A stretch of 64,000 nucleotides of DNA from Bilabrum cf. latius (taxonomy: Eukaryota): contig OZ237763.1 in the NCBI GenBank assembly GCA_965178125.1, positions 496,001 through 560,000 of the forward strand, given 5' to 3'. Shown here piece after piece: positions 5,432-51,438 of this stretch. The notes beneath the pieces were generated by a model that had not been told where the DNA came from, ran no database searches, and worked only from the letters and a program-made list of their open reading frames with translations. Position 1 is the first letter of the stretch. Every line of letters starts with the position of its first letter. A program made the translations under genes and the position numbers.

Positions 5432-5503
5432 GGGCCGTTGGTCTAGTGGTATGATTCTCCTTTAGGGTAGGAGAAGTCCCGGGTTCAATTCCCGGATGGC
5501 CCC
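5432..5503 (+). tRNA. tRNA-Pro(AGG)
   Basis: GGGCCGT/ATGGCCC acceptor stem, TGGTCTAGTGG A-box, anticodon arm CTCCT-TTAGGGT-AGGAG, T arm CCGGG-TTCAATT-CCCGG, downstream T-tract (TTTCTTTTTT) as Pol III terminator. Confidence 0.95.
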
Positions 5504-13107: not shown

Positions 13108-14534
13108 ATGGAAGCGTACAAAATAGTCAGAGAGCTATCATCAGCAAAGGATAAATCGGGTGCTCTAGAGAAGCTACGAGCCTACGTTGGGAACCAAAGT
13201 AGCGACTGGAAGGATGAAGTCGACGTAAGCTTTCCATTAGAGCTGTGCGCTCTTTCAAGGTTAGGAGTAGACTGCTACATGCTAGATTGCGCCTAAATCC
13301 TCGTCGATATTCTGCAGTGTTTAGATCAGGCGCTTTTGTACAAGGCAATCTACATCAAGGATGCCCTGACTCGGAGAAAGGCCGTGCAGATCGTACTTGA
13401 CGCTGGCGTTTCCGTTGACTGGGTGGTAAGATTTGCTTGACTTGACCTGGACAGCAGCGTTCCTGGCGTGGCGTGGTGGCCTCCTGATGATCGTATAGCG
13501 CTTTTCTGCATTTTGAGAGTCGCAGCTTTCTGATGGCAGCTAGGTGAACATTTTGTAGCATACCAACGACCCGTTTGTATTGCAAATCATGCTTGACCAT
13601 GGGGCAGATCCCAACCTGCTATGTGATCGCGCCGACCGAAGCCTAGCTTGGGACGTGAGAGCCAGCCCTGAAAGGGGGAGACGGACGCCTAAAGTCGTCA
13701 GCGAAGCAGCCTATCGTCCAAATTGCCTGCTTGTTGTCTTTGTATCTGCAAAATACCACGCAGAATCCTGGCGAGAACGTGCCACCGCTCCATCAGGCCT
13801 GCATCAACAAGGACGCCGTGGTGGCGGCGGTTCTGCTCCGCGGCGGTGCAGACCCAGCGGTCCGGTCACCTGGTCTCACAGCTGACTAGTGCTGTAGTAT
13901 GGATGAGCGAACGCCCGCGGAGCTGGTTGGTTGGTTCTCCAGAATGACAGACACGTCTGACAGGTGGTGCCGTTGGCGCACTGACCACTACGACAATACA
14001 CCCAACCAGGAGCAGACGAGGCTAGAGGCGGCCCTGCGCAAGGGGGGCAACAGCAGGAAGAAGTGCCTGAAAGAAGTGGTGAAGGAGTTCAAGGGGGAGA
14101 TCAAGCTGCGCTTCCCGGACTTCTTCTACACACCGCGCCGTATGCGCCTCGCGCAGCACCGCATGGCTTGGGGGGCCAGAAGGGATGCGGGCTTGGTGTT
14201 CCAGGCGGCGAGCGAGGGCAGGCCGCTGGAGCTGGCCAAGCGGCTGAGGCTGGGGATGTTGGCGGGGGGTCTGGAGCAGACGGGGCCATCCCGGAAGGAC
14301 GGGCGCGAGGTGACTCTGCTGACTGCCGTTGAGGAAGGCGGGCACGATGAATGCGTCAAGGTGCTTGCGAGGGTGTACGGCAGCAGGCTCGATGCGGCGA
14401 GGGGTCGCGGGGTCGCAATGATGCCGTCGGGTAGTGGGAAAAGGAAGAGAAAAAAGAGAAAGAAGGGGAGCGAGGCGGTCGCAGAGAAGGATAGTGCACA
14501 TGAGCTCGCTGGCGATGAGAAAACAGTCGGATAA
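13108..14534 (+). CDS. Ankyrin-repeat protein, paralog A (multi-exon; exon boundaries approximate)
   Basis: Exons encode ALLYKAIYIKDALTRRKAVQIVLDAG, DPFVLQIMLDHGADPN, PPLHQACINKDAVVAAVLLRGGADPA..D[TAG]CCSMDERTPAEL, a C-terminal ankyrin-like module and a basic KRKRKKRKK tail. GTAAG/GTGAG donors present; ends TAA. Confidence 0.65.
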
Positions 14535-17500
14535 TCACGATGCCAGTGGTGGGACTATGGCAGGGGCAACGACAAGGTTCAAAGAACTTCCCATCCAAGC
14601 GATGACAGAGTCGAGAAGCACTCGCGCCATAATCCCGAATCGGATTGCCGATCCGCCGCTGGTGGCGTCATGTTCCCAGGTCCCGTTCCTGCACCGCATC
14701 TTTCTCACACCGCTCTTTCCAAGCTACATTTCCGCTTGTTGTACCACGCCACAGTGAAATCGCGCATACTCAACAGCATGGCTGCCCCGATAATCGACTT
14801 GTTTGGCGATGCGAAGGAGCCAATGGAGGGACGCCTCGATCGCCTGGCTGAACTAGTTAGGCTGTCGCCAGAGCTCTACTTCACTCCAAATGTGCGGTCT
14901 ATTGTCTAATGGATGCCATTCAATTCACTTATTTTCAGCACCTGTATGGAGCATTATAGTCTTTTGGCTTTGTACGACCGCAGGATCCATCCCAATCGGT
15001 GCTGTACAGAGCCTCACGTTTCGAGGATGCATCTTTCCGGAGACAAGCCATGCGCAAGCTCCTGCGTTTGGGAGCCCCGTCATATTACTTTGTTAGAGCT
15101 TGCAACGGTCAAGGAATGCAACCCTTTTGAAGTGTCAGCCGGCAACGCTAACTTCAATCGTGTTTACCTGCCGTCCTTGCAGAGTGACAACGCCGACAGT
15201 TTCAACTTGCTCTCGCTATGCGATGATCCATATGTATTACAGCTTGTACTAGAACATGGTGGCCAGCCGAACGGCGAGTGCTTTCTGCAACAACGCGAAG
15301 CTTACGTCGTGAGGCACGTATTAGCGAACGCACCGGAGACATGCACTGTCTGGCAAGTCATTTGACTCCGGTCCGAAGTATATGAATATTTCTTATACTC
15401 GCAGAAGGGGATAGAATGTCTGCCACCGCTCCATCAGGCTTGCGTGAATCGTGATGCTGTTGCCGTGGCTGTTTTGCTGCGCGGCGGTGCTGACCCGGCG
15501 ATCAAATCAAAGGGGGTCACCGATTACCTCGACGGGGAGGAGCGCACACCTGCGCAGCTGGTCGGTTGTTATTCGTACGGGACTGGCACCTCAAACGGGT
15601 GGCAGGACTGGGGTAAAAAACAAGACAAAACACCCAACCAGGAGCAGACGAGGCTAGAGGCGGCCCTGCGCAAGGGGGGCAACAGCAGGAAGAAGTGCCT
15701 GAAAGAAGTGGTGAAGGAGTTCAAGGGGGAGATCAAGCTGCGCTTCCCGGACTTCTTCTACACACCGCGCCGTATGCGCCTCGCGCAGCACCGCATGGCT
15801 TGGGGGGCCAGAAGGGATGCGGGCTTGGTGTTCCAGGCGGCGAGCGAGGGCAGGCCGCTGGAGCTGGCCAAGCGGCTGAGGCTGGGGATGTTGGCGGGGG
15901 GTCTGGAGCAGACGGGGCCATCCCGGAAGGACGGGCGCGAGGTGACTCTGCTGACTGCCGTTGAGGAAGGCGGGCACGATGAATGCGTCAAGGTGCTTGC
16001 GAGGGTGTACGGCAGCAGGCTCGATGCGGCGAGGGGTCGCGGGGTCGCAATGATGCCGTCGGGTAGTGGGAAAAGGAAGAGAAAAAAGAGAAAGAAGGGG
16101 AGCGAGGCGGTCGCAGAGAAGGATAGTGCACATGAGCTCGCTGGCGATGAGAAAACAGTCGGATAATCACGATGCCAGTGGTGGGACTATGGCAGGGGCA
16201 ACGACAAGGTTCAAAGAACTTCCCATCCAAGCGATGACAGAGTCGAGAAGCACTCGCGCCATAATCCCGAATCGGATTGCCGATCCGCCGCTGGTGGCGT
16301 CATGTTCCCAGGTCCCGTTCCTGCACCGCATCTTTCTCACACCGCTCTTTCCAAGCTACATTTCCGCTTGTTGTACCACGCCACAGTGAAATCGCGCATA
16401 CTCAACAGCATGGCTGCCCCGATAATCGACTTGTTTGGCGATGCGAAGGAGCCAATGGAGGGACGCCTCGATCGCCTGGCTGAACTAGTTAGGCTGTCGC
16501 CAGAGCTCTACTTCACTCCAAATGTGCGGTCTATTGTCTAATGGATGCCATTCAATTCACTTATTTTCAGCACCTGTATGGAGCATTATAGTCTTTTGGC
16601 TTTGTACGACCGCAGGATCCATCCCAATCGGTGCTGTACAGAGCCTCACGTTTCGAGGATGCATCTTTCCGGAGACAAGCCATGCGCAAGCTCCTGCGTT
16701 TGGGAGCCCCGTCATATTACTTTGTTAGAGCTTGCAACGGTCAAGGAATGCAACCCTTTTGAAGTGTCAGCCGGCAACGCTAACTTCAATCGTGTTTACC
16801 TGCCGTCCTTGCAGAGTGACAACGCCGACAGTTTCAACTTGCTCTCGCTATGCGATGATCCATATGTATTACAGCTTGTACTAGAACATGGTGGCCAGCC
16901 GAACGGCGAGTGCTTTCTGCAACAACGCGAAGCTTACGTCGTGAGGCACGTATTAGCGAACGCACCGGAGACATGCACTGTCTGGCAAGTCATTTGACTC
17001 CGGTCCGAAGTATATGAATATTTCTTATACTCGCAGAAGGGGATAGAATGTCTGCCACCGCTCCATCAGGCTTGCGTGAATCGTGATGCTGTTGCCGTGG
17101 CTGTTTTGCTGCGCGGCGGTGCTGACCCGGCGATCAAATCAAAGGGGGTCACCGATTACCTCGACGGGGAGGAGCGCACACCTGCGCAGCTGGTCGGTTG
17201 TTATTCGTACGGGACTGGCACCTCAAACGGGTGGCAGGACTGGGGTAAAAAACAAGACAAAACACCCAACCAGGAGCAGACGAGGCTAGAGGCGGCCCTG
17301 CGCAAGGGGGGCAACAGCAGGAAGAAGTGCCTGAAAGAAGTGGTGAAGGAGTTCAAGGGGGAGATCAAGCTGCGCTTCCCGGACTTCTTCTACACACCGC
17401 GCCGTATGCGCCTCGCGCAGCACCGCATGGCTTGGGGGGCCAGAAGGGATGCGGGCATGGTGTTCCAGGCGGCGAGCGAGGGCAGGCCGCTGGAGCTGGC

Positions 17501-17632
17501 CAAGCGACTGAGGCTGGGGATGTTGGCGGGGGGTCTGGAGCAGACGGGGCCATCCCGGAAGGACGGGCGCGAGGTGACTCTGCTGACTGCCGCCGAGGAA
17601 GGCGGGCACGATGAATGCGTCAAGGTGCTTGC
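13998..17632. repeat. Direct tandem duplication, 1632-bp period (about 2.2 units)
   Basis: ORF translations recur at +1632 (14063/15695 identical, 17327 nearly so; 14913/16545 identical). Identity begins at ACACCCAACCAGG (13998, 15630, 17262) and ends after GTGCTTGC near 17632. Confidence 0.97.
14778..16166 (+). CDS. Ankyrin-repeat protein, paralog B (chimera; multi-exon)
   Basis: ATG 14778; intron 14892-14938 (GTGCGG...TTTTCAG); exon 2 HLYGAL[TAG]SFG..SVLYRASRF..RKLLRLGAP; later exons DPYVLQLVLEHGGQPN and PPLHQACVNRDAVAVAVLLRGGADP; ends TAA. Confidence 0.75.
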
Positions 17633-17762
17633 CAAAGCTTAGAGGTTCGCAGCGGACAAGCTGGGGCATGGCGGGCACAGGCACCACCACAAGAAGCACA
17701 AGCAGCACAAGAAGCACAAGAAGAAACACGGGACAGCAAAGGCAGGCACGGGGGGCTCTTGA
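16410..17762 (+). CDS. Ankyrin-repeat protein, paralog C (multi-exon)
   Basis: Same 5' exons as B. Reading TAG 17640-17642 as Gln adds RFAADKLGHGGHRHHHKKHKQHKKHKKKHG...TGA (17760-17762), a basic tail analogous to that of A and B. Confidence 0.75.
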
Positions 17763-17936
17763 TTTGTGATGGTTTCCACATCGATTTGGGCCAGTCGGGC
17801 GAGGCGCGATGCCCGCTAGACACGGGTCCTACTGGATCTATTTGTCTTGAGGCAAGCACAGCACACACTCGTTCAACACGCGTATCAAATAAGATCCGTC
17901 TAAGGTGTAGCTGTTCATTCACAAATGCACTGCATA

Positions 17937-20900
17937 TCACGCGTTCTGCCGGAATCCCCCGAGTCCATCGCTGATCGAGTAGATCGCCTCGAGCACCTTC
18001 CGCTTGGTGACTTCCACGCTGGAGTACTCCGGCAATGACAGCTCGTACGAGCAAACGCGGCAAGTCAATGGTAGATCATCAGCTGATTCCAGCCCATGGC
18101 GGGGGTGCCTCTTGTTGATCTGCAGCGGCCGCGGCCGCAGACCGCTGAATCCATCCGCGGGCAGCCGAGACGAGGCAGTGGCAAACTCCAAAAATAGCTT
18201 CCGTTCCTTTTGCTCCAGCTAGGACAGCACCAGAGTGAGGTGCCGCACGGGCGGGTCAGACACATCGTACCGAAATTGCTCGCTGCGGTGGAAGGTCAGA
18301 GCCTTTCCAATGGCAGCAGGGGTCCACAAATGATCCGTGGCACCTGCAGACCGCGAGTCGGACAGCAGGTCGGCCAGCTCATCTGGGCTGAACATTCTTA
18401 GGGCAGTTGGGTCTGCCACGCACTGGTAGCCGTGCAGAAACGCGCGCGCCTGCGCCACCGCCGGTTTGACCACCATCCTGTCCACAAGCGCAGACACAAA
18501 CTCCCGCAGGCACCTGGTATCCACGTCACGGTCAGCTCCCCCCGGGCACAGCTCGACAGGCGGAGACCCCACTTCCCACGTCAGGCAGTAGAGATCCAGC
18601 TGATCCTGGACGTATTGCTTCAGCGGGGCGTCTCCCCGGAGCTCGGCCTCGTCCAAGGCGTGCAGCAGCCTCTGCAGCGCGTGGCACGTGCCGGCCATGT
18701 CAGGCTCCACCTCGGCCAGGTCACTCAGGTTGAGCGGGCGGCCCGTGAGCAGCTTGCAGAAAGCGGGAGATAGGGGCAGATCCAGCACGTCGTGGTGCCC
18801 GTCCTGCAGTGCCTTGGCAACCGCCCGCCCGGCCAGAACGAACGTGTCTAGCACGCGAGCGGTGGCGCCTGCGGCATCGCTCTGCGGCGCCTTGCCCGAC
18901 ACTTTCGATGCTGACGCGCTGGGAGAGCCACCCTCGGAGCTGGCAGGCTCCATGGTTGGAAGCGGCTGGGGAAATAGGCCGTTGGGGGCGTACGCGTACT
19001 CCACACCGCTCATCGAGTTGAGTTCTTTCGCAACGATGGACATCATCGACTCCGTCCGGACAGTCGCAGCCGCAGAGTCCCCACGTGTGGTTGCGGGCTA
19101 GTCGGTCCCTTCGCCGTGAGCAGCTGCAGCTTTGGCTACGCCCAGCTCTGCATCCACCGCGCTAGCAGTGCTCCCAACCTGGATGAGGGTGGCTTCGCCG
19201 TCCAAGTCGCCGAGGTCGACACCATCCTGTTGGTCCTCATCCATGGCTTGCTGCTGCTCCTCCTTCTGCACATTGCGCCACAGACCGAGGTCTGTCTATT
19301 GCAAAGAGCGGAATAGCAGCGTGTAGAACTCCCTCGTCACGCCCTCGCCATGGGCATCCTCCCCTTCGAACGTGACGTTCAGCACCGCCGCGCGACGGCC
19401 CAGCGAATCCTGCCCCTCTGACCTCTTGGGATCCACGCAGGCGGATCGCACGACTTCGAGCGAAGACTCTTTTACGCACGAGGCATACACGCTCATCGTG
19501 CGCGGATCAACCTCCGGCGATGGTCTCACAGCCACGCTTGCCTCGATGGCACCGGCTCCAGACGATGGCCCCGACTCGGTCTCAATCCCAGCAGCGTGAG
19601 GGAGAGGCATGATGGAATCAGACATGCGCGCGCGTTCCTGCATCTTCTGCTGCTGAAACTCCTGAAAGGAGTACATCGGGGCGCACCACCAGCGGAACGC
19701 GTGCGCAGCCGAAGCCACGAGCCCCCTTCCTCTCGCCACGGTTAGCTTGAGCTCGTGCTGCAGGAACCGTTCAGGGTCCGAGTCTCGCTTTCTGGCTCGT
19801 TTTGCAGCATCCTCGGCAGAGTCTCCTGGATGAGCAGTACCTAGCTCGTGCTGCACGTGCAGCAGCGCTCTGCTCCTGCCGAATCCCAAGGCAAAGAACA
19901 CACGGCGCCTCAGCGCCAGAGGCAAAAGCCTGGGCTCGATCTTCGGCAGCAGTGTGCTCCATCGCGGGACCGCTGCGAACGCGAGCGAGACGTTGTCCTT
20001 GATCTGCTGCTGCAACCGGTCTGCCAGCTGTTCGATGGCAGTGGCAGCAGGCGGCAGCAGACGGTTCTCCTGCTGTGCGCGAGCCTCGGCCGAGAGCCCT
20101 CCCACGCCGCCCGTCCCACCGGATTGGTCGGCAGCAACCTCAGGAGCCAGGGCGCAGATTAGCTGCATGGCGCGGAGAGCAGACGAGACGGGCACGTTGG
20201 AACTCGCAATGCGCGAAGACACTTTGCTCATCTTGTTCCTTTTGGCCTGCTTTGCGTCTGGGCCCGTAGTATCGGCTTTCATCTTGTCCTTTGCTGCGGC
20301 AAGCAGCTGCGAGTACCTGGGATCCTTGGCCTTTGCAATTGGCTGTCCACTGCCGGCTTGATTCCCGTCGCTGTTGTCCGAGTCATCATCGTAGTCATAC
20401 GGCAGTTCCCGGCGGCCGTAGACAGTGGGAGCCCCGGGTATAGACTGCACAGTGCGCCAGGCGTCTGGCAGCGACATGGCTTCCTGCCGCGCCCTTTGAA
20501 GTGTAAGCAGGATGCCAGCTGCGGTTGGAGTGCGAGTCGCGTGCTTCGATGAGCAGTCCACCGTAGAAGGTGCCGCGACCGCAGCAGTATTGCAGGCATT
20601 TGCATTAGCGGGATAGATCTCGCTGCTAGCCCCAGCTGTCCCAGCACCAGATGCTGCCGATCTCTTCTCCCTACCCTCGATGGCCTCGTCTTCTGTTGCC
20701 TGACTGCCTGATGCAGAGGGCCCCAACCCCTAGGGGGCGTCCATGCTGATCGCGGTATACCGGCATAGAGCGGTGGTTGGAGCCTCATACCATTCGCAAG
20801 ACTAAGTGGCCCCAGCTGCCTCACTAGGCAGCGGGCTGTCACTGCCATCGCCCAAGGCGGCAGCCATGCGCTACGCAAGCTCCTGTGCGACTCTGACACG

Positions 20901-32876: not shown

Positions 32877-33121
32877 GGTTAGCCAAGATCCTCGAAAGCT
32901 TAGATGTGGCAAAAAACAGCTAAATCACCGCTGGGATGCTCCCAATCAGTGCAGTGAAAGCAATTGCTGCGAACTATGAGGCAGTCAGGCTTCGAATTAT
33001 TCTAGCCCACCTCCTCAGTAGCGTTCTTGCCGAGTGCTCTTGTCCGAATTTCATTGGAAGGTAACGTGCTATTATCTTACCTGGATTATTTGATTTCAGA
33101 TTCCCGTCTAGCGACAGCAGC
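32877..33121. promoter_or_regulatory. Putative bidirectional promoter between the HECT and NBAS-like genes
   Basis: 245-bp AT-richer gap between divergent inferred ATGs at 32876 (-) and 33122 (+). Positional inference only; no motif identified. Confidence 0.45.
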
Positions 33122-36100: not shown

Positions 36101-39100
36101 CTCCAGCTGACTTGGGCAAAGGCAGGCGATGCTGCCCAGCCGGAGTATCCCGGAGCCTCGCGCGATCCAGAGCTACTGGTCGCAGATCTGATTTCGATCT
36201 TGCACCGCACTGATCTTAGCGAGGGAGCTCTGGCAGGACTCGTTGCGGCGCACAGCGACCCCGACGTTCTGGCTGAGTGGTACATCTCTCGGGCAATTCA
36301 GATCGACGAAGAGGGCGGGTCGCTTGACGCCTCGTGTGCCATCCTCATGTACGGCTCAGAGTCGGTTCGAGCGTCTGCAGCGGCAACACGGAAAATTCAA
36401 GACGTGCTCAAGCAGGCAGCGAGGCTCTACCACGTGTGCTCGTCGATGTCGGCATTCCAGTCCGTTGGCTTGGGACAGTGGCTCAGCTCCCCGCAGGAGG
36501 GTCGGTGCTCGCTGCTGCTGCGCGGATGCACGCCCGGATCTGCACGAGCTGTCTTCAAGACTCGCCTGCTGCCGCTGCTGTCATTGTCTTCGACGCGCTA
36601 TGGAAGGCACACGCTCACGTTTTAGGGCGAATCTGTCGACCTCTCTGCCCTTGCTATCGACAGGTCCAAGGACCAGCGAGAGGAGGACTGCTTGGCCATG
36701 CAGCGCGCTGTGGCCGTCAAGCTGTGTGGCAGACTCGAAGATGAAGCCAGAGTAATTCAAGAAGATTCCATTGAGATTCATCAAAGTTCGGCAGGGCAGG
36801 CTTCCAGCGCTGCTTCCAATCCGTTCGACACCGTCAGGATCGTTCTGCAGCTAGTGGATCCGGGCCAGCCGCTAGACACCGTACCGAGCATAGATTTTGC
36901 CATGTTGTTGTGTGTAGCGGTTGCAAAGAAGCTCTTGCGCCTGTTTTACGACACGCCAGCTAATAGGTAGCACCTGCGACAGTCACTGCTGGAGTCGGCT
37001 GCAGCGGTGCTGGAGAGCGCCCCGGATGGTCTCCTGGTCGGAGCCGCAGGTGGCAGCATAGAAACCGTTCGGTTAGGTGCACTAGATAGCAGCAGCACTT
37101 TCTCCGATGCGCGCACGCTAGTCTCAATGGTCTCAGAGATTCGGACGCTCCAGTCGTCCCCTAGGTCTAAGCTTCGCGCGATCAGGGCAAGTATGCAGCA
37201 ACAGCTATCCACGCTGCGAACCAGGGAAAGGTATGGCCTCCGGTCTGACGGAATTGATGAGAGCATAGATCGCGTTGCGGAGACAGCCGTCGTGAAGCTA
37301 GATGTAGAGAGGTGCCGAGCTCCTGTTGGTCTGCACCGGGCAGCTGCGTCTTTGCTGGACGCACTGTTGCAACTTGTTCCCAGCTGCTCTTAGGTTCGCT
37401 CGGATGATGCTAGGGGGCTGTATTTCATTGTGGAGACAGTATGCGGAGAGTTGGAATCGGGATCAGATCAGAAAACGGTAGAGACAAGCGTAAGGGACGC
37501 AGCATTACTTGTAGACGCCCGATGCAACCCGTCCAGCAGTGCAGGCAGTGGCGTTGTGGATCTGACTTTGTGCAAGCAATGGGTCCTGTTTCAAAGCATG
37601 GCGATTCACTGCAGCTAGGGACGCTTTTCAGTTGCTTCAAAGCTTGCAAATGCTTGCGATACAGACGTGGAGCGGACATGCGCAGCCGCTGGTGCATGCG
37701 CGGCAGCAGCCAACCTACTGGTCGCGAGGGAGGGAGCGTGCGAGGCGGCTAGGCTGCATCCCGGGCTGCAATCTCACTGCGAGCCGGCGTGCTTGCGCGG
37801 GGCTTTGCGGTCCATCCAGTCCGCAGAACTTGCATCGTCAGCTCTGTCGAGTATCACTGGGGGCGAGAGCCACGGCTAGATGGCATAGAGTATTTTGGCG
37901 ATGGGCCGTGTGGCTGTTGTTCTTCAGATTCTCGGGCTGTCAATGAAACCCCTGCGCTCGATTCGGACAGGTGTGGTGGGCCTCAACCAAGTTACGGCAG
38001 AGATGGCGTAGGAATTTGCGAGCCGAGGTGCGTGTCCCGGCTGGTCCCGGCTGGAGTGGCTGCCCGGGGGTTATTCCAGGATAGAGGAGGCCGCGTCGAT
38101 GAATCTCGCGTCAGTGGCAATAGCCCATACCTAGATTGGACGACGTCAGTGTGCCGACTCCAGCAGTGACGGCGCTACCGCACTCACAGCAGCTATCGAT
38201 CAAGCCGAGCATTCCTTGTCCATGCTGCACGGTGAACTGTCGAATCCACACGCAGCCTACTTGCGGGCAGGTAGCAGCGACAACAACGAGGAGGGGGGCG
38301 GGATCGCTGCCATTTCCAGCGTTGCAACTACGATTGGGTCTGCCGTGAGCCAACGCATTGCAGGGGTGGCGGCAGCAGTATCACAGCGGCTATCGAATCC
38401 GGAGCAAGCCCCCGAGAACGACAACGAGGATGGTGCAGCAAGCACATAGGGTGGCACGAATGGATAGTAGCACAGCGGGTACGTGCCGGGCCAGGGCCTT
38501 ACTAGCTTGGTGGGCGATCTGCTTGGAAGTGTGACGATCGGTGGGAGAACCATCAGTAGTGCAATGCACCTGGATCGGTTTGGCTCCGCTGTGGCCGGCA
38601 TGGGCAGCATGGCGCTGCAAGCTGCTACCACAGCACTGGCGAGCGATGGCAGTGCAGCCGCCGAAGAGGGGCTGGACCAGAGGTCAGCAGGGGTGATTCT
38701 GATCGAAAAAATATACGAGCAAGGCCTGGATACCGAACCGAATCCCTTTGATGTGAGTTTGGCTGAAGATCCCGTGGAAATGCCTGACAAGGATGCGGTG
38801 CAACAATGTTTGGCCCCGTTCAGGGAAGTTGCTCGACTGCTGCAGATCGCACAACGACGGGTCGCTTCGACTGCACTTGAACCCCATCGGGCAGACCACT
38901 GGGAAGCCTTTGCGTGTAGTAAGGCTTGCAAGATACTGTAGCTGCAATCTCCCGCCCCAGGCAGCGGGATGCCGCCCGTGGATGTTATTTTATCCATGCG
39001 GCCGAATAGGCACACGATCGAGGACCAGCCCATGGACCCGTCGTTTGAGACATACCAAAACAGCTGGATCGCGGCAACTGGCAGAATCGATCCTGATGCT

Positions 39101-42100
39101 CGGCCGCAAGAAGTGCTATTGCATGTGCAGGCTCTCCTTGCCCCGTGTGCAGCGGGAGGGGCATCCCTCGCGGGCGGATTCGACGCGCACGCGTCCTATG
39201 TGACTCGACGCGACGCTCTCTCCGCATTTCGGTCGATGAACCGGCATGCCGAACTTGCCGAGTAGGAAGACGCGAGGCACGGTATCGCACTGGCCCTGTC
39301 ACTGTCAGATCATGCAGCCGCTGGCGCTTGCTTCGCAACCATAGCCGAGCCTTTCCGCTGGCTTCGTTTGGCAGCCGCTGCAGTGCTCGACCTCGTCCTT
39401 CGTTGCGATGTAGCGATCCTGTAGTCATCTAGTCCCAAGAAGCTGGAAGTTGCGGCAAAGTCGTACGTGCAGCCCGCAGCGGCTTCAGGTGCAGAGGTTA
39501 GCGAATTGGCTGCGGTGCATGCTGAAGCCAGCGAGGCGATTGTGGCGTTGGCTGCATTGAGGCTCGCTGCTGGGGACATAGCCTCACGGTTTGGCTGCTT
39601 TGCCGTTGGATTGCTTGGAAGCAAGACCGTGTCTCAGTCTGGGGCCCGTGTCCCGCCAAGGGTAGTACCTGGCAGCGTTCAAGTAGCTGAAGGTCGGGCA
39701 AGACTGCTAGGGCCTGGCTTGGACGCTCCTGACTTTGATGGAGGGTGGATCGAAGGTGCACAGTCTGCCATCCGTTGCATGACTGGAGATTCAGTTCTGG
39801 TACTTTGTCAGGGAGTTGAAGATGACTTGCTCCGCGTTCGTGGCGGCATGGATAGCTAGCCTGGGCCTTTGGAGCACGCACGTGTAGCCGCGGACGATAC
39901 TTAGGCCCATCGGTAGGACGAACTTGACATGGAGACACTTGGCGAGGACGATCTGAGACAGGTCATTGCAGCGGCAGGATCGACGAGCATGCCCGTGCCG
40001 AGTCTTCTCAGTGCACTGACGTACGCAAGGATGACTGCGCCTGGAAGCACTTAGTCTCAATTTCATCTAGTAATTAGTTCGCTGTTAGCCGGAATAAGGA
40101 GAAACGATGACCAGCCGCTGCCCCATGCGCCATCTCCGGCACCAGGACCGGTGCCTAGCATATCACCAAAGACTAGCGAGTCTGTGGCTGGAACAGCCCA
40201 GCGACAAGCCATCGAGAGGGTCGGGTGTCGCGCTGCCTTGGTTGCGTGCGGGCTGCTGCTTGAGGAGGCGGAGGGTTCGGATCGCCCAGGACTGCCATTG
40301 GTAGGTCGCGGAGCTGGGCAGGTTGGAGATGCGGAGAAACTGGCAATGCAAGCGGCCTCGCTCGCGTTGTAGCACGGTTCGGAGTAGCTCAGGATAATCC
40401 TACTCCGGTCATTTCAATGTGCATGCTGCTTTGTGCACGGGACTGTCCGCTCCGCATCGATTGCAAGAAGTGCACTCTCGGTCTTGCTCCATGTCTTGCC
40501 TCCAGAGGTGCGCTCAGACTGCGCCAGTCGACTTGGTGAGCAGCTACCGCCGCACTCACCTGATAGCATGGAGGAGAGCCGCCTTGTGCACGCACTTAGG
40601 GAGGCTGTGGCTGGCTTAGGCGAGGACAACCTGCGCAGCTTACTGTCAAGTGTTTCTCTCACTGGGCTAGTTGCGTGCCCGGCACGCACTGGATGTGCGA
40701 TTTCGGGGTCATGTTCTAAACTTATTCCGATCTGCACGCCTGCTTTGATTGGTGTGTAGGGGTGGTGCGACGATCTTCACAAGATGACCCGTGGTGCTGC
40801 TGCAGGCTCAACAGCAGTTAAGCCAGCTGTGAGTGGGAGGCAAAGCGTTCTTGAGATTGTTGGCGTCCGGGCAGTGATCCGTATCATGGGCAAAACGGCT
40901 GAGCCAGCGGCCCTCCGCCCTTGGCTACATGGCGGACACGAAGAGCCGGAGGCAGAAGAGGCAACGAATCCTGGTTTTGGCGTAATGAGCGCCGGGGACC
41001 TGCCTGCTTTAGGGCGCAGCATGCTCATGAATGCACTTCAATGCGCCGCGCTGCCTGCAGTTGGGGCCCTGGCCAAATCACTGGCCAGACTGAGCCTCAG
41101 CCTATCTAAAGCCGTCGACGACGGTCACCAAGAGGAGGCTCGCAAAGAGCACGGTCGATCGGCGCAGCGCGCGCTGCTAGAGTGCTGGGCCACTGCCAGT
41201 TGTAGCATGTGGTCTCGAGGGCAACATGAGGTTGCTGCGCCGCTAGATTGCGCCGGCTCTGTGGCGGCCACGGCTGGCAAATTGATCGCTGCTCGACGGA
41301 TGCCGATGGATGCGCTGCCCCGACTCGCATGGCTCTGCGGCTTACTTCCTCCCTGCAGTGCAATTTTGAAGAAGATTGGGATGCCACAGGCCTGCGAGGC
41401 GACCGTTTCCAGCGCCTGGATCGAGCCGATATCGGTCGTGCAGGCTGCAACACTTGAGGCAAGGCCTTCAGTTGACTGGTCTCGCGCGTCCAAATCGCTC
41501 ATGAACGCGATTCGCACCGCCGCATGCTCCGTGATCGGCCGTGATCCCTCGGACGAAGCAGCATCCAAGCACCCGAGGCTGCTCGCGGCGTACATTGCGT
41601 CGACCGCCCAGCTTCGTGCCATTGCCGCGCTGGATGGCTGCATGCAAGGTGGCAGGGCAGATTTAGCGCATATCATTCCTGCCATCGCGGCAATTTCCAG
41701 CAGATTGCGCGCTTCAGTGCCCGGCCATGACGCCAGTGGAGATATTGGGGTACAAACCGCGGCCACAGGCAGTGGTACACTAGTTGTACCGGACCTGTTT
41801 GGCGGGGTTGGGGTTGCCCAAGCCGCTGTGCTGCTCGGTCTTTCCGATGAGGATGCCAGCGCTCTGGTCGAGGCCTTCAGTGGGCCTGAAGGTACGAGCT
41901 AGCTGCAAGAAGCAAAGCTTCGCCTCGCTACTGCCTCGCTATCTGCGTGCATTCTAGGCGCATCGAAAGAGCTAGATACACCAAACGCGGGTGGCCGCCT
42001 CGACGGTGCCGGCCAAGGAAGCGAGTCATTGCACGACACATTGAATTTGCTTGAGCTGCTGTGCTCCGAGCAAATCACATCTGCTTCAGCAATTGCTTCC

Positions 42101-44566
42101 ATTCCTACTGTTTGCCGTGAGGTCGGGAACTGGGTACGTAGCCTTGGCAGTGGGTGCGAGGCTCCCGTCGATTCTGGCGCGGCTGACTGCGTAAAGGATG
42201 TAGGACCAACAGGGCATATCCTAGATCTGGCACACAAGCTGCTCAGTATCATTGCTGGTGCCAGTGGGGACAATGCCAAGGCAGCCAGGCGTGCGCTCGT
42301 GTCTCTGATTGAAACCGTGCAGCCGGAATCCGCTAAACCTGGTGGTGGTGACAGCGCGCCAGGCAGCAGTGCCCTTGCCGATGCCAAGAGACGAGATCGA
42401 GTGGATGAGTTGCTCAGTTTGGTAGGTCTACGAGGCTCAAGCAACATCGTCTCGTGGCTCTCAACCGGCGCACTGCCGCCCATTGAGCACGCAGATCGCG
42501 ACGGACTCAGCGCTGGCGCAGCCGGGCAGGCAGACCAAGCCGGGCCGAGTGCCGGAGGTAGCCTTGTCGATGGGCACGAGGCAAGCTTGGAGCTTGAGCG
42601 CGCGCTCAATACGGTAAACAGTGAAACTGCCGATGCGGCTGAAGCCACCGACGCGACTTGGAAACGGCTTGCTGCTCGATGCGCACTAATCGCTTGGCTG
42701 CTGACGGGCTAGTCAACATCGGACACTACTGTAGCATTGGACAGCCTGCGCTGCATAGCCAGTGCGTCCGCAGGAGACGCATCGGGTGCCGAGTAGCTTG
42801 CTATTGGCGCTGTTGCCCCGATGCATGGCTGCCTGCTCGCGATGAGCACACGGCTGGGCAGCTCCCAAAGTCTCGGTGCTCGACGACTCAAGGTGGACGT
42901 GTAGGTCGTAGTGGAGCTGCAGACGACCATCCTGCGGCTCCTGCTGCAAGAACTAGCGCAGATTGGGTCGAGCGACGGAGCTAAGGATGGTGGTACATAG
43001 CCAGCGGCTTCGATCGATGTAGAATTGTGTGTGTGCGCCCGTCAAGCATGCGAGGCGATCGTGCTCCTCGGTGAGCTGCAGCACGGCGAGGTGGAGCCCG
43101 ATGCGCGCGAGTAGCTGCTGCTGCTGGCAATGAATGCCCTTGCTATGGCCACCAGGGATGGGACAGAGGCTCTGCCGGCCACTGCTGCTGTCGTCGCGGG
43201 TCTTGCTCTCTGGCTAGGGATGCGGGGCGGGGCGGACGGGTCGGTACCCTCGGACCTGCGGCGGCCTATCGATGACGCCCTGTTCGACTCATCATCGGCG
43301 GCCGCAGAGATGCTCTAGAGGGACGCAGGCTCCTCTCTGGAGTCGTGTGCGCTAGCAGGTGCGGTCACGTACGCTGCCATGCTGGTTGGAGTCGGCATGC
43401 TCAGCGAAGTCAGTCCAGCATCCATGCAGTCCGTGCTCAAGTGCATCCCACTCGCAGCAGGCGGGTGGGCCTGCGGGAGCCTGGAGGGTCTCTCTGTGGG
43501 AGCCATGGGCTGCGGCTTGCTGCTGTGCGAGCTCGTCCTGTCTGGGAGCGTCGATACTGCTGCTGACGCGGCTTTCCCCGTGGACTCCAGCACTGACGGA
43601 GGCCAGAGTCCCAGTGGCTCTGACTAGGTGCCCAGCGACTCGGATTCGCTCCGCTACCACAAGATCCGAGGGATGCTTCATTGGCTACTGCAACTCCAAA
43701 GCGACAGTGCACAACCGGGGGTCGCACAGACCGCTTGGGCAGGCAGCCGCACAGTGAGTCTGCTGCAGTCGTTGGCGGGCAGCACAGGGATGCTTGCCCT
43801 TCAGAAAGTAGATGCCGTGAGGGCGCGCGTGATCGAGGCAGAGAGGGCGGCGGGGGAGAGAGCGGCCGCTGCTCAGGCCGCCTTTGCCGCGGCCAAGGAG
43901 AGCTCCTCGGGCATGATCAGCTGGCTCTCCAGCTCTGTGTAGGCCGCTGCCGAGTCTGCTTTCGGTGGGGGTGAGCACGCAGGCGATACTGGGGCTGGCT
44001 TGAAAGCCGGTGTACCTACTAGTGCTATCGGTAGTGGCACAAGCGGGGCTGAAGGATCGACTGGGGCGGGTTCAGGTCAATCCTCATCGCGTGGAGTTGA
44101 AGGCGCTGGAAGGGCTCCCAGCCAGCGCTCTGGTGCATTGCTTCGGTCTGTGGAGGGTGTGCTGTAGCCTTCGCCTGGTCTCAGATAGCCTGCTACCTCT
44201 CATTTTGCAATCGGGGGGGACGGGTTGGGAAGCGCCGAAGCTGGGACTCTTGGGGTTCGTGCACAGGCAAGCGAGACTCGGGGCGATGATGCAGACGCTG
44301 ACAATGCTGACGATGGCTGGGGAGAAGATTGGGGCGATGAGCCTGCGAATGAAGGGCTTGGTTCTACTCGTGCAAGTGGGCCCGGTGCCGCGATGGATCC
44401 GGATGCGAGTGCGAGGGAGGGGCAGCAACGAGTTGGACAGTTGGTCAACACGGGGTCTGGTTCCGCCACAGGTGACTCCACGACCAAGCCTGGGAGTGCT
44501 GCACAGACAGGGGGGTCGATTTCAGTCGATGATCCAGATCTGACTTTTGATGATGACGACTGGTGA
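33122..44566 (+). CDS. NBAS / Sec39 / MIP2-like subunit of the NRZ(Dsl1) ER tethering complex, up to ~3814 aa
   Basis: About 20 ORF fragments in one frame joined only by TAG (about 40 by hand, including TAGTAG near 33965 and 38465). Sec39-like segments FLKSQPKALAPFLMAVLQCIPAGVPVSGFAHLLP and LAEWYISRAIQIDEEGGSLDASCAILMYG; acidic Trp tail DDGWGEDWGDE...FDDDDW; ends TGA. An in-frame intron near the 5' end cannot be excluded. Confidence 0.78.
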
Positions 44567-44625
44567 GTTGGGTGCAGTTTGCTCTGCGTCGAATCTTTAC
44601 TTTATAGACGCTTCTCATCTTCAAC

Positions 44626-47100
44626 ATGGAGTTTGAATGTGTAGCAACCCAGCAGAAAGTCAAGGTGGATCATACCGACTCCACACGGTCGGCTGCAATG
44701 CAGCAGGCACAGGAACTCTGTTTCGCACAAGGTGCAAAGATTCGTCTTTCCTTTAATCCTCGGTAGGTTTCGGACCACATCCTCGACTATCTGAGCGGCT
44801 GGCTCAGCTCTTGTGGATGTGTAGAGTATCTTTATATATCTGGATATTATCCGGGTGAATAGGATAGCTCCAGTGCTCTGTGCACCTGCCTTGCATCGTT
44901 GCAATGCTCTGCGCCCAGGCTGCTCAAAATTGATGTTGGGAACTGCAGCGTTCTCTCTGAAGATGAGAAGGCCATGGAGAGCGTGTGTGTCTTAATTAAG
45001 CGTGCTACTGCACTGAGAGAGCTGGTGTTTCCTGTTGGTGACATCGCCGTCCAACAGCAACCCGTATCGCTCGTTAGTCCCTCTGTTGAACGTTTGCAGC
45101 TAGTCGCTGGCAACCTCACGCAAATCAGGGATACGGGAACACCGGATTTACACCTAGCAAGCTGTATGGGCAAGTTTCCCCGCTTGAAATATGTCGGACT
45201 CGACTACTATGGACGAGGAATGGCGGCCTTCCTTGAGCGACTTCTCAGCACCACTCGAACGATCGAGTCCCTCCGAACTGCAGGACTATCTGCCTTGGAT
45301 CAACCAGCGAACTGCCCTGTAGCACTGTGGGACGCTATTGCTACTAATTCATCGCTTGTAGAGGTGGACTGCGAAGGCGTGGTGCCAAGCAACACGGCCG
45401 GTTGCGAGGCCATGCGCAAAGCACTCGCTGCTCACCCCAACCTCAGTGCCCTCACGCTGCGGCATATCGGGAATTATTGTGAAACAGAGGGGTGCATTTA
45501 GCCTGTCAGAGACGGCCTGGAATTAAACCCCCGTGCCAAGCTCCGTGACCTGATCATCGGTCACCACTACCCGCAAAACGAGGACAAGGCCGTCGAAGGG
45601 CTCGCCGGCCATCTGCCTTCGATCCGGTCGCTTAAGCTTCAGCTCCCGCGTCTCCAAAGCATGTAGGCCCTTGCACGTGGACTGCATAGCATCACTTCCC
45701 GGCTCGAGTGTATTGAAGCGTACGGGGCGCAGGATCTACCAGCCGATGCCGCTAGCCATGAACAGCTTGCCGAAGGTCTTGAGGCCTGTCCCACTCTGAA
45801 GCGGGTCAAGCTGACAATGGAGTACCATGCAGAAGATGCCAAGCTTGCTGCATACACAGCAGCCATGCGTTCGAGTACGATCGAGCACATCGATTTGAGG
45901 GGCTACGATTACTTCTCTCTGGCCGACAAGATATTGGCCTTCGGCCAAGCGGCTGCCAACGACACCGTGACGTACCTCGACCTGGAGTATTTTGCGGATC
46001 ACCATGCGCCACTTTATCGCCTACTAACCCAGAATGTGTCCTTAAATCACATTCAACGCTGCTGTGCGGGTCTGTCGCCCGAAGAAGGGCAAGGGCAAAG
46101 AGGCAGGTTTCTGCAAGCTTTGGGAATGAACCGCGGACTCTGCTCTATCAGTGTCTAGCTACTGGGGTATCAGGATGGGGCTGGCCCCGTGTGCGAAATG
46201 CTAAAATCCAACATAACGCTCCAGAATGTCGGTATTAGTGGCTTTACTCTGAAGGAGGAGGAGGTGGGCTAGCTGATGGCGTGTATTAGAGCACACTGCC
46301 CTGGCCTGAAGCAGCTGCACATCCCAGACATGGTCTCGGATACCGAGACTCCGATGCTAGCGCAGGCCGCTGTTTAGTCCGACCGTTCCGACGTGGTGCA
46401 CGATTGGATAAAGGTCGACCCTCTAGCAGAGCGGGCTGCGTGCGTTCTGCGCCTGCTTGCCAATCCTGAGCTGTGCCGAAGTCTGGACCAGCCCATGGCC
46501 ATACAATATTGCGCAAGAGCTTTCGGGCTCGCGGTGGAAGCCGACAATCCCGCCGATGTGATTCTGGTCAGCCAGGCCCTGCTAGACCTGGCAGGGGTGA
46601 GCAGGATCCAAGACAATGGAGTGGCCATGCCGGTTGGGGTCGATGGCAAGACACCCATACTAGCGTGCGGCCCCGCGGCTGGTTCGCAGAAAGTGCTGCA
46701 GTTGATCCGGGGTTCGAACATGTACACCCACGCGGGACGTGTGGTCAAGGGCAGGTACGGGCTTCGCAGGGAAGACGCCGGCGGGAGGTGGGCAGGGGCC
46801 GCGAAGAGGTGCCAGAGATTCCTGGAGGCTTCGGTGGGGTGGCGTCGCGACCGACTGCTGCAGTGGCGCAGGGCACTGCGGGCCAAGCGGGATGCTACGA
46901 TGGTCTTCCAGGCGGCGAGGGATGGGCGGCCTCTGGAACTGGGAAAGCGACTGAGGCTGGGGAAGCTGGCAGGAGGTCTGGACATGGAGGGCGAGGTGGA
47001 GCACGATGGCGTGAGCATCCGCGTGACCGCGAGGGAAGCCGCCCTCATGAAGGGACACATGGAGTGCGCGGAGCTGATCCGGGAGGCTACTGAGCGGTAA
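44626..47100 (+). CDS. RNI-like leucine-rich-repeat protein with C-terminal ankyrin-like module, ~824 aa
   Basis: One frame, seven in-frame TAG, ends TAA. Repeats such as AIATNSSLVEVDC, ALAAHPNLSALTLRH, AAANDTVTYLDLEY, ALGMNRGLCSISV, MLKSNITLQNVGI; C-terminal MVFQAARDGRPLELGKRLRLGKLAGGLD...AALMKGHMECAELI. Confidence 0.8.
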
Positions 47101-47274
47101 GGTTATTGGTATTGCTGTGTTGTTGTCTTATGCACTTTGTAGCTGCGCTTTCTGCGTTGAACGTCAGCAACCAGCGATGGATTGCCGTAAACTACGCGCA
47201 ACCTCGGTCAACAATAATCGGAACTGTATTCCGCCGGTCGTTGCAAGCTACACGGCAGTTCTACACCTAAAGAG

Positions 47275-48557
47275 ATGCCGGCTAGCCTGTAGTATGTTGG
47301 TACGTAGCTTGATTCCTTCGTGGAAGCTGCTCTCGGCCCAGATCTGGCGCCGTGGGCAGCAATCATCGTCGCGGTTGCAGTTGGTCTGGCCGGAATCATT
47401 TGGATTGGTACCATTGTCCAGTACTCCTCCATAGAATTCTATTCCTTCTGCTGTTTTAGACCGCGTAACATGGCCAAGGTGTATGGCACGGAGGAGGAGC
47501 CTACTTGGGCTGTGGTGTCTGGCGGTTCAAGTGGAATCGGGCTTGCCGTCGTCAAACGACTAGCTACTGATGGCCTGAATGTGGTCGTTGTGGCCCTTGG
47601 AGACTCGTTGTTGGACAAATCTGTCGCTGAGCTTCGGAAGGAATTCCCCAAGGTGGAGTTCCGCGGCATTGGAGCCGATCTGTCGAAGCCCCCCGCGGAG
47701 TACATGCCCGGTATCATGGAGGGCACCGAGGACATCCTGCCCCGCGTTGTTTTCCTGAACGCTGGTAAGAAACCCCCCCCCCCCCCCCCTCCCCCGCATA
47801 TATTCTCCCGTGTCACGTTGCGTGCGTCGGTTCGTACGATGTTCACGGCGGCTGCAACTTTGCTCGCCAATTCGCAGGTTTCATGAAGACTGGTTTCTTC
47901 GATGCCACCCCGATGGGCCTGCACCTGGCCATCTCCAACTGCAACGCCACGGCGGCCATGGCCATGGCAAGCCACTTCATCGGCAGGCTGAAGAACGAGG
48001 GCTCCCGGGACGGAAACCCGCTGTCCACTGACGGCAAGCGCGGCTGCGTGGTCTTCACGAGCAGCCCCGCAGGCTTCATGCCCGCACCCTTCTCGTGCAT
48101 GTACGGAGCCACAAAGGCCTACCTGACGGAGTTTGCGACCAGCATCGCGCCCGAGTGCGCCCCGATCGGGATCGACGTGTCGGTGGTGCACCCGAGTCCG
48201 GTGGCCTCTCGGTTCTATGACCAGGTCAAGCACTCGATCGACCTCCTCGAGATGTTCAAGGCGACCGGGACAACTCCCGACACGCTTGCCAGGATCATGC
48301 TCGCCGGCGTGGGCCGCAGGGTGGTGATTGAGCAGGGGTACTACCCCGCCTCCGTGCGCTTGTTCCTCAAGGTGCTGGACCCCGTGTTCTTCGCGGAGCT
48401 GATGGCCTGCATCAGCAGCTACCTGCCCGACTACGCCAGGATGAGAGAGGCAGAGGCGAAGAAGCTGGCCGGTGAGAGCGGTGCTGGCGGTGTGACGAGC
48501 AAGGGTAGCGGCAAGGGCAAGGGGAGGGGGCGGTCGGGCAGCCGCACCTCGCAGTGA
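47275..48557 (+). CDS. Short-chain dehydrogenase/reductase, KCR / 17-beta-HSD12-like (3-oxoacyl-CoA reductase)
   Basis: N-terminal TM helix, WAVVSGGSSGIG, FLNAG split by intron 47765-47877 (GTAAGA...TCGCAG), YGATK catalytic motif; two TAG in the first 11 codons; ends TGA. Confidence 0.88.
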
Positions 48558-48842
48558 GCCCGGGCTTCCATGGGAGCTTCTGCTGACGGCCCTCTGGGAG
48601 CTCACGGGGGGACTACTAGATCTAGTAGGCTCGCTGGCTGGCTTGATGAGGGTGCGCGGAGCCCTCCGCTCACAACAATGCTAGATCGGTCGAGCTGCAG
48701 CAGCGTTAGAAAATGCTGCTGCGGCGATCCTTCGCACGTTGTGGGTGTCTGTTCGAACTCGTGGAGTTCTGATTTGTTCCGTTTTGAAATGCGCGGCGCC
48801 GCTGCGAAGTGACGCAACGGCAACTGCAGAGTATCGAGGATC

Positions 48843-51438
48843 ATGAAGTCCGCAACTGCGATATTGGCGTCGCTCTCATTGGTTTGTGCTGCCACATTCG
48901 AATCTGGTCCGCCGCCTCCTGGTCCTCCGAAAAAAGGAGCTCCAAACATCGTCCTTCTCATCACCGACGATCAGGATGCCATTATTGGAGGCTGGGACTC
49001 CACACCCAGGACGATGCAGCAAACGAAAGCCATGCTTGAATCAAAAGGGATGTGGGCCGAGCAATGGAGAATTGCCACTCCGATATGCGCCCCCTCGCGG
49101 TCAGAGCTCTTCTCGAGCCGGTATCTCCCTGAAATCCCGAGCGACGAGATGACGCCGTCCCCCAAGGTTTCCAGCGGAGGGATCGACCAGCTGGACTTGC
49201 GTAAAGTGTGGCCTCATGCGTTTCCCATCCACTTGCGCGAACAGGCGGGCTACCGAACGGGCCTATTTGGGAAGTGTGAGAACCTCACACATCCAAAGAT
49301 CGCCGCTGCTGAGCCGCGGATACTAGTAGGGACCTGCGGCACAGCTGCTTGTACCTGAATCAATGCCACATGATACAATAACGCAGGTATGAACGAAGAT
49401 TGTGGCGCATCAAACAAAGATGCGCACGGCCTGAACTTCCACCACATGGGCGCATTCGGTGAGATGGCGGCCATCATGATAGTCTACGTACCTACTAGTA
49501 GGCACTCAGAACTGCCCTATTTTCCACATTTTGGTTAGTCAATGGATCGCAGATGTGTGGTTCGAGCACACAGGGTACGTGAATGGGACGTTCTTCGACA
49601 ACACGAAGCCCTCGTGCTCGTGGCCCTGGGACGCCAGCAAAGACGAGTGCTAGACACCCACCAACAACGGGCCCAAGTGGCAGGGCAAGGGCAACGGGTA
49701 CGACACCTCGACACTCGGGAATCGCACCGTGGATTTCATCAAGGAGGCCAAGCAGCAGGAGCCCGACAGGCCCCTCTTCATCTGTGAGCCACTGGCACAC
49801 GGGTAGGCAGCTAGCTGTCCATCATGCCATGCACCTTGCTGCACCTTGTCCGGCTTGAGGACCGAGAGCGAAGCCGGTGCAATGCCTCGTCTTTACCTTT
49901 ATCGATTGTCCAATGGCGGTCCGTCTGCAACTGAACATCATCTCAAGCTCGTCTTGCAGCCACAATTCACGGCTGAAGAATTCATCCTCATTTTCTCCTC
50001 CCGCAGATTTCGCCCCGCACGCACCACACTCCCCCGCCACGCCCGCCAAGTGGTACGAGAGCGGTACCCCCTGCGACACCATCATCTCACCCAGAACTCC
50101 GGATTATAATTATTCCGGCCCCGTCAGGACGGAGTGCTCTGCCTAGCCGCCCTCGGGCCCCGCTCCCTTCGGCCACGAGTAGGTCTGGTGGTTCGGAGGG
50201 ACCAACTTCAGCGAGCTGACCTCATGCTAGCCGTATTTTGACGAGAAGGACGAGGCTCAGATCGATGACTTGGCGCAAAAGCGGTGCAAGGCACTGCTGT
50301 CGGTCGACGACAGCTACGCGGGCATCGTGAGTGCGTTCGAGGAGCTGGGGGAGATGAATAACACGTACTTTTTGGTGACGTCCGACCATGGTGAGGAAGG
50401 GAGAGAGAGGAGGAAACCATTGCATGGATCCGTGTGGCCACCGTGCATTGCAGTGCGATGCTTTTGCAGCTTGTCCGTTGCCTTGGCTACGCTTTCCGGT
50501 AGAGCCTGGTGCGTCAATGCAGCGGCTCGGGTACCAAGCCAACGTTCCCTGCTACCCACTGGCACCCCCCTATGTTTTAGCCATCTCAGCCCCCAGCCAT
50601 CCCACCACCTGATCTTCCATGCTCCCGCAGGCTACAACCTGGGCCAGCACATGCTTCCCTCGAACAAGTTCCTCTCATACGAGCACAGCCTCCGCATCCC
50701 GATGGTGTTTAAGGGCCCGGGGATCCAGCCCGGCACTAAGCTGGACTTCCTGGGGACTCAGGTGGACCTGGCCCCAACCATCCTGGGGCTGGCCGGGATC
50801 GACAGTCCTGACGATTACTCTGGGCAGAGCGTCGTCCCGCTGCTCATGGAGGGCTCAAGCGGCGACGAGCTGCCACCCACGGTCTAGGAGCACCTGCTGG
50901 CAGTGGACAAGCCGACTCGCCAAGCTGCCACGTTCTCCTACTGGAACCAGGGGCCGTGGTTCGTTGGCACACGCCATCCTCTCGACGACTGTGAGAAGGT
51001 GCTATTCTGATGCTATCCTGCCACTGAATTGCTTTCCTGGTCGTGTCGCTGTTCCTTGCGCTGGTGCTGCTTATCCAAGGCCACGCGCCTCCATTTCCGC
51101 TGCGGCGATGGTATTTCAATCCATGCGATGCATAAAAAGCGATACTATTGTATGCCTTACATTGATCCGCAGGGAGCAACACATACACCGGAATCACCTA
51201 CCGCGACGATGACGGGTCCCTATGGAAGTACGCGAGGTACGACCCTTACGGCAAGCAGCGCAACATGAGCAGGCCCTACATGTGGGAGCTGTTCAATCTG
51301 AGGCGCGATCCTTACGAGCTCGTCAACCTGTACAACCAGACGAAGGAATCGAACCCCTCCTTCGTGGCGAAGCTAGACCAGATCGCGACCAAATACTACA
51401 CTTGTTCTGGCAAGTCGTGCAGGACTGTGGCTCCGTAA
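48843..51438 (+). CDS. Secreted/lysosomal sulfatase, N-acetylglucosamine-6-sulfatase-like
   Basis: Signal peptide; PNIVLLITDDQD, ICAPSR (CxPxR), GYRTGLFGK, APHAPH, TSDHGYNLGQH, DLAPTIL, ELFNLRRDPYELVNL. Introns 49276-49386, 49459-49552, 49784-50006, 50391-50630, 50991-51172; five exonic TAG; ends TAA. Confidence 0.9.

Follow-up and report, generated by a model that had tools for sequence, protein, structure and literature searches.

For a long time it was thought that no nuclear code gives different meanings to UAG and UAA. The split has since been documented in just a few lineages, in Iotanema, in the rhizarian exLh, in three phyllopharyngean events and in one oligohymenophorean ciliate (PMC5304391, PMC11687900), and each new case tests whether UAG and UAA can be separated by a tRNA with a CUA anticodon together with an eRF1 that discriminates at the third base. 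The 64-kb stretch of DNA analysed here (the window, which is the whole of our sample) raises the question of whether it comes from another such organism. An earlier note on the window had proposed that TAG is a sense codon in its genes, probably for glutamine (Gln, Q), and that TAA and TGA still end them. Every test that we ran supported the core of this proposal, namely that UAG and UAA are decoded differently. We conclude that this GC-rich, intron-containing eukaryote quite probably has a nuclear code in which UAG means Gln and both UAA and UGA are stops, as in NCBI table 15.

UAG as a sense codon and UAA as a stop

The GC content varies between 55 and 69% across the window and is about 60% overall. 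Contigs from three sequencing runs (X5-X7), which are called RNA here by guess only, bridge ten GT..AG introns of 90-240 nt; because the GT..AG joints are present in these contigs, we take the window to be transcribed nuclear DNA with spliceosomal introns. The RNA contigs span 19.8 kb; parts of the SMC gene (∼52.1-54.8 kb) lie outside their cover, as do the gene ends at 14534 and 16166. From open reading frames (ORFs), family matches and RNA joints we assembled 14 gene models comprising 17,473 codons (Table 1). TGA is the stop of ten models and TAA that of four; none ends in TAG. Of the 15 gene ends given in the earlier note, 14 are backed by models with TAA or TGA, and one, the end of an ORF at 752, found no support; this ORF has no family match and a GC content at third codon positions (GC3) of only 0.53, and was left out of the models.

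The reading frames of the 14 models contain 113 TAG, 0 TAA and 0 TGA codons. TAG is found in frame in 12 of the models, and over all 14 it accounts for 0.65% of codons and ∼15% of Gln codons. Under table 11 the longest ORF of the window has 971 amino acids; when TAG is read through, ORFs of 4991 amino acids (35 TAG) and 3814 amino acids (41 TAG) appear. Conserved domains are likewise continued past TAG. The HECT domain stands at the C-terminus of the E3 ubiquitin ligase (Pfam E=3e-41), and homology to TRIP12/Ufd4 runs on beyond the last TAG of this gene and across the domain's conserved C-terminal region. The seven TAGs of the SMC gene are located between the N- and C-terminal halves of the head (Pfam SMC_N), the CDF domain has its conserved end downstream of its TAG, and the homology of the kinase also goes on downstream of TAGs. 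The coding score, a measure of codon usage trained on five genes of the window and taken over 60 codons on each side of a TAG, averaged 0.247 before and 0.257 after TAG at 35 sites, and 0.209 before and 0.208 after TAG at 39 sites.

One explanation for such in-frame TAGs is that they are not translated as such, owing to RNA editing, to pseudogenes or to errors in sequencing or assembly. We regard this as hardly credible. The contigs of all three runs match the DNA: over 44653-47150, a region with seven TAGs, there are 0 differences, and across the whole 19.8 kb a single difference is listed, which lies away from any TAG. Because RNA and DNA agree at the TAGs, editing is excluded wherever RNA covers them. 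Moreover, the frames that hold 113 TAGs are free of TGA and TAA, and TAG is found at the same positions in relatives, as described below. With coding potential retained across the 74 in-frame TAGs that were scored, the proposal that UAG is a sense codon stands; UAG is a frequent sense codon and is present in mature mRNA.

TAA behaves differently. If TAA were synonymous with TAG, 37-44 in-frame TAA would be expected beside the 113 TAG, given the share of A-ending codons among CAA/GAA/AAA (0.25-0.28), and the probability of seeing none is ≤1e-14. Out of frame, the DNA of the same models has 113 TAA in 34,946 triplets. These numbers bear on the possibility of a table 6 code, in which UAA and UAG (together UAR) both mean Gln and UAA is merely scarce because the genome is GC-rich. 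Among the stop reassignments of eukaryotes, UAR=Gln is by far the most frequent (PMC11687900), and A-ending codons are indeed in the minority here. Nevertheless, this possibility is very improbable in view of the missing TAAs and of what happens where TAA does occur. Reading TAA as a further sense codon leaves the ORF of 4991 amino acids no longer than before, and the other giant ORF gains 72 codons upstream and no more. Past the four TAA ends coding potential is lost, with scores falling from 0.22-0.36 to between −0.07 and −0.39, as they do at TGA ends: from 0.220 to −0.066 at the end of ankyrin-like copy 1 (14532-14534, + strand), from 0.363 to −0.351 at 47100, and from 0.238 to −0.385 at the sulfatase end at 51438. 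At the 47100 gene, the RNA contigs of two runs reach 47150/47151 and no further, 50 nt beyond the TAA and ahead of any later stop codon, the in-frame TGA being at 47158-47160. The sulfatase end is also compatible with a weak structure match to a C-terminal sulfatase motif (E=0.18), in which the homologue extends ∼30 residues past the motif, compared with 28 residues before the TAA here.

We conclude that UAA is a stop, never in frame here and present at four gene ends. Both parts of what had been proposed for this codon are thereby upheld, that it is missing from reading frames (0 of 17,473 codons compared with 113 TAG) and that it terminates, as the loss of coding potential at all four ends and the RNA contig ends 50 nt past 47100 indicate. 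Separately, we rejected as a read-through protein the 277-codon extension that table 6 would create past the TAA at 14534/16166; it has a second TAA and low coding potential, and it apparently includes 5′ exons belonging to the tandem copy that follows, in the same frame by chance.

Some observations weigh against a clean division into sense UAG and terminating UAA and UGA. The end of each gene model is its first TAA or TGA by construction, which makes the tally of ends circular; the comparison with table 6, the completeness of domains and the drop in coding potential past the stops are the supports that are not circular. Evidence from transcript ends is thin, being a weak hint from two runs of one study at the 47100 gene. 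Finally, in the kinase gene the final TAG precedes the TGA by 29 codons, and the 28 codons that lie between the two have a weak score (−0.047). This TAG could conceivably have a stop function. We therefore considered a dual, context-dependent UAG, as in Condylostoma, that would be sense inside genes and a terminator near some mRNA 3′ ends. Besides the kinase tail, such a code would suit the shortness of the sole measured 3′ untranslated region (∼50 nt), and a terminal TAG would be hidden by the way in which the ends were set. On the other hand, none of the 14 models needs TAG as a stop. Beyond the other late TAG, which ankyrin-like copy 3 has 40 codons ahead of its end, coding potential is normal (score 0.235, GC3 0.82). 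The interval between the final TAG of a gene and its stop ranges over 29-980 codons, which is unremarkable for a mean TAG spacing of ∼155 codons. In addition, the known ambiguous codes differ from this one, in which neither TGA nor TAA occurs in frame. A dual UAG thus appears improbable. We had looked both for in-frame TAA and for models ending in TAG, either of which would have spoken against separate meanings of UAG and UAA, and found neither.

The amino acid read at UAG and the predicted decoding machinery

Homologue alignments at TAG positions suggest that UAG very probably means Gln. The kinesin P-loop motif is GQTxxGKT/S, and in the window a TAG occupies the place of its Gln, within FAYG-TAG-TGSGKTYTM, in an exon that lies between RNA-supported introns. 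All 5 printed alignments of kinesins show Q at this position. At the TAG column of the CDF transporter, 150 homologues have Q in 125 cases, E in 19, T in 3, S in 2 and C in 1. These two columns bear out the earlier assignment of UAG to Gln as the probable one. Close relatives offer a further comparison, in which the residues opposite nine TAG sites are Q (4), E (3), K (1) and L (1), with one of the three E sites falling in a poorly aligned stretch.

The other columns speak less well for Gln, and we count them as neutral or against it. Just two TAG columns with distant homologues are conserved; five others are variable, with no Q among the residues printed. The printed homologues have R/R/N and S/A/D at TAG columns of the HECT ligase, A/V and A/S at those of the kinase, and T/T/T/A/V at that of the amidotransferase. 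The CDF column holds G in the bacterial protein FieF, and the close relatives have E, K and L as well as Q opposite TAG. When two sulfatase exons were compared with solved structures, no alignment could be used at the TAG columns. Columns without Q are, however, to be expected, because canonical Gln codons themselves fall on Gln-dominated conserved columns just ∼44% of the time, as reported by Panek et al. 2017 (PMC5304391).

The same data may be read as UAG coding for another amino acid, such as Glu (as in peritrich ciliates and Blastocrithidia), Lys, or Leu (as in exLh). In favour of this are the E, K and L residues at five of the nine close-relative sites, E at the CDF column in 19 homologues, and the five variable columns that lack Q. 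We nevertheless consider another amino acid unlikely, since Q stands in all five printed alignments at the kinesin P-loop and is dominant at the CDF column, and is the commonest partner in the close relatives. The E (GAG), K (AAG) and L (CAG to CTG) partners are one-step neighbours and ordinary replacements of Gln, and the low rate at which canonical Gln codons reach Gln-dominated columns applies here too. For Leu in particular, the count is 0 of 7 distant-homologue TAG columns and 1 of 9 close-relative sites, which is not what a UAG=Leu code would give.

If UAG is Gln, cytoplasmic ribosomes would read UAG as Gln, with UGA (the commoner) and UAA remaining dedicated terminators. By the logic of Panek 2017 and McGowan 2024, UAG would be decoded by a tRNA-Gln with anticodon CUA. 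This anticodon should be unable to wobble onto UAA, and the tRNA probably arose from a copy of tRNA-Gln(CUG). Its predicted counterpart would be an eRF1 that lacks efficient recognition of UAG and has kept that of UAA and UGA. Changes of this kind would be expected in the GTS, NIKS and YxCxxxF regions of its N-domain; T32G of Iotanema (PMC5304391) is an example at the contacts to the third base. In agreement with the earlier note, which placed neither component in the window, ARAGORN and Rfam found tRNA-Pro(AGG) alone in the window and no tRNA with a CUA anticodon, and the eRF1 family had no match among the 17 ORFs scanned, a subset of those in the window.

Known codes and the lineage carrying this one

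The GC content and the 90-240 nt spliceosomal introns of the window appear unlike those of ciliate genomes. UAR=Gln (NCBI table 6) is the code of many ciliates, hexamitin diplomonads and some ulvophyte green algae. Table 6 codes share UAG=Gln with the window; they differ in having UAA=Gln too, whereas here there are 0 in-frame TAA and four TAA ends. The context-dependent codes of Condylostoma, karyorelicts and Blastocrithidia have all stops, or UAA, in frame, compared with TAG only here.

The code variant found here is itself already known, from Iotanema, Hartmannula and Trochilia. The fornicate Iotanema spirale (Metamonada) has UAG=Gln with UAA/UGA stops, and by the account of Panek et al. 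2017 (PMC5304391) the likeness extends to the same table, UAG as a widespread sense codon at conserved Gln positions, no UAG terminator seen, no in-frame UAA or UGA, and the same predicted mechanism of a tRNA-Gln(CUA) with an altered eRF1. The main stop of Iotanema is UAA (104 UAA compared with 15 UGA; PMC5304391); here it is TGA (10 compared with 4), at ∼60% GC. None of the close sequence relatives found bears a taxonomic name, so that the organism may or may not be akin to fornicates. In the phyllopharyngean ciliates Hartmannula sinica and Trochilia petrani, UAG=Gln had two independent origins (McGowan et al. 2024, PMC11687900). There, UAG makes up 18.5% and 31.8% of Gln codons, compared with ∼15% here, and genes with at least one UAG amount to 78-84%, compared with 12 of 14 here. 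Their genes end in UAA in 87-92% of cases (PMC11687900), and the models here in TGA in 10 of 14. In the rhizarian exLh, and likewise in three TARA phyllopharyngean genomes, UAG is Leu and UAA a stop, so that the two codons are likewise uncoupled and the amino acid differs. Phages with code 15 (TAG=Gln), among them crAss-like and Lak phages, reassign this codon, and likewise to Gln (PMC9523058). They do so on bacterial ribosomes, with RF1/RF2 and phage-borne suppressor tRNAs, in contrast to eukaryotic nuclear DNA with introns.

Close relatives were found in two forms. A relative ∼83% identical in the 3814-amino-acid protein is represented by fragments only; at six TAG sites it has Q (3), E (2) and K (1), and four of its fragments terminate exactly at further TAG sites of the window. 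A scan of metagenomes with the CDF alignment gave one useful contig from a relative (L001) and two distant ones. L001 is 86% identical in the CDF domain and has an open frame of ∼636 codons with 4 TAG, 0 TAA and 0 TGA; its TAGs stand opposite CAG, CTG and, in the poorly aligned stretch, GAG of the window. The GC content of L001 (1-2705) is 55.6%, below that of the window, and TAGs are nevertheless in frame in its CDF gene. A metagenome scan with the 3814-amino-acid protein found nothing, and an Atlas look-up with the kinesin motor gave generic kinesin clusters only. For 20 CDF matches whose clusters were looked up, two taxon names emerged, Cymbomonas (a green alga) and Heterosigma (a raphidophyte), among matches with identities of ∼38-43%, which are too distant to place the organism.

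Because at least one relative, with 86% identity in the transporter domain, also has the in-frame TAGs, the change in the code is older than this species. The organism probably represents a new, GC-rich lineage with UGA as its preferred stop and with the code change in common with one relative or more. Whether this amounts to an independent origin of UAG-only reassignment to Gln, in a GC-rich organism that is neither ciliate nor fornicate, with UGA as the main stop, an environmental relative sharing the code and, in the databases searched, no close relative that bears a name, is a tentative suggestion to which we give slightly less than an even chance. A literature search of incomplete coverage yielded no GC-rich, non-ciliate UAG-only Gln carrier besides Iotanema, and PMC6733595 has only UGA=Trp in a plastid and no nuclear UAG code. 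Since ∼60% GC and a preference for UGA differ from the published carriers, the window bears on the mutational setting in which UAG is captured. If the origin is independent, the uncoupling of UAG from UAA would not depend on UAA-dominant stops, and the organism would offer a system, backed by a genome, for locating the tRNA-Gln(CUA) and the changes in eRF1. A practical consequence is that gene prediction with the standard code shatters the genes of this organism. The database proteins of its relatives are fragments ending at TAG, and a table with TAG=Gln is needed to annotate this genome or environmental sequences akin to it.

Features and further observations in the window

The features on which the analysis draws are collected in Table 1. 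Further genes among the family matches include the kinesin and a short-chain dehydrogenase.

Table 1. Coordinates of genes, codons and gene ends in the 64-kb window.
Feature	Coordinates	Strand	Remarks
Cation-efflux (CDF) transporter gene	1851-4766	+	Family match
TAG at conserved Gln column of the CDF transporter gene	4176-4178	+	Homologue alignment
tRNA-Pro(AGG)	5432-5503	+	Sole tRNA gene of the window
DOMON/cytochrome b561 protein with many ephrin-receptor-like repeats	8176-10247 (repeats)		Family match
Three tandem ankyrin-like genes	13731-17762	+	Copies 1 and 2 end in TAA, copy 3 in TGA
TAA ending ankyrin-like copy 2	16164-16166	+	C-terminus identical to copy 1; coding-score drop
HECT-type E3 ubiquitin ligase gene, intronless, 4979 codons	17937-32876	-	35 TAG, 0 TAA; TGA stop 17937-17939
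Intronless gene, 3814-amino-acid protein without known family	33122-44566	+	41 TAG, 0 TAA; TGA stop
824-codon gene without known family	44626-47100	+	7 TAG; TAA stop 47098-47100
Sulfatase gene, six exons	48843-51438	+	5 TAG; TAA stop; Pfam Sulfatase; RNA GT..AG joints; exon ends 49275, 49458, 49783, 50390, 50990, 51438
SMC-type ATPase gene, 1262 codons	51627-55415	+	7 TAG; TGA stop; Pfam SMC_N at both ends
NAK-family (GAK/AAK1-like) kinase, last exon	55466-57682	-	5 TAG in whole gene; TGA stop
TAG at Gln of the kinesin P-loop	58641-58643	+	Exon between RNA-supported introns
Glutamine amidotransferase (PabA/TrpG-like), 3′ part	63415-63999	-	1 TAG (63919-63921); TGA stop
TAA gene ends, closing four frames	14532-14534, 16164-16166, 47098-47100, 51436-51438		
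TGA gene ends	4766, 12237, 17762, 17937(-), 44566, 48557, 55415, 55466(-), 63097, 63415(-)		

The three ankyrin-like copies are spaced ∼1.6-1.7 kb apart. Copies 1 and 2 share identical C-termini, and copy 3 diverges from them at a TAG, from which it continues as a basic His/Lys-rich tail to its TGA end. A related C-terminal module also closes the gene at 44626-47100. The 3814-amino-acid protein matched no Pfam family, and a search for homologues 2097-6675 amino acids long found none.

A 154-bp tandem satellite in the stretch 5432-7608 (13.6 copies, 96% matches, strongly C-rich on the + strand) begins 5 bases past tRNA-Pro(AGG) and yields long spurious proline-rich ORFs. In the DOMON/cytochrome b561 gene, the region 8176-10247 encodes a Cys-rich array resembling ephrin-receptor/TNFR repeats, with tandem repeats of 96, 144 and 240 bp in the DNA.

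The short-chain dehydrogenase may start 65 codons further upstream (47275-47469), where the frame is open, has an ATG and a hydrophobic helix-like segment, and includes two more TAGs; RNA contigs at this gene begin at ∼47259. Contigs of X5/X8 join 47793-47795 or 48457 to 63448-63449, positions ∼15 kb apart, with a short side of 21-23 letters, and this join probably reflects either a short repeat present at both places or a chimeric assembly. At 63980-63999 on the - strand, the amidotransferase has VCLGCQ, compared with CLGHQ in 5 of 5 printed PabA/TrpG homologues.

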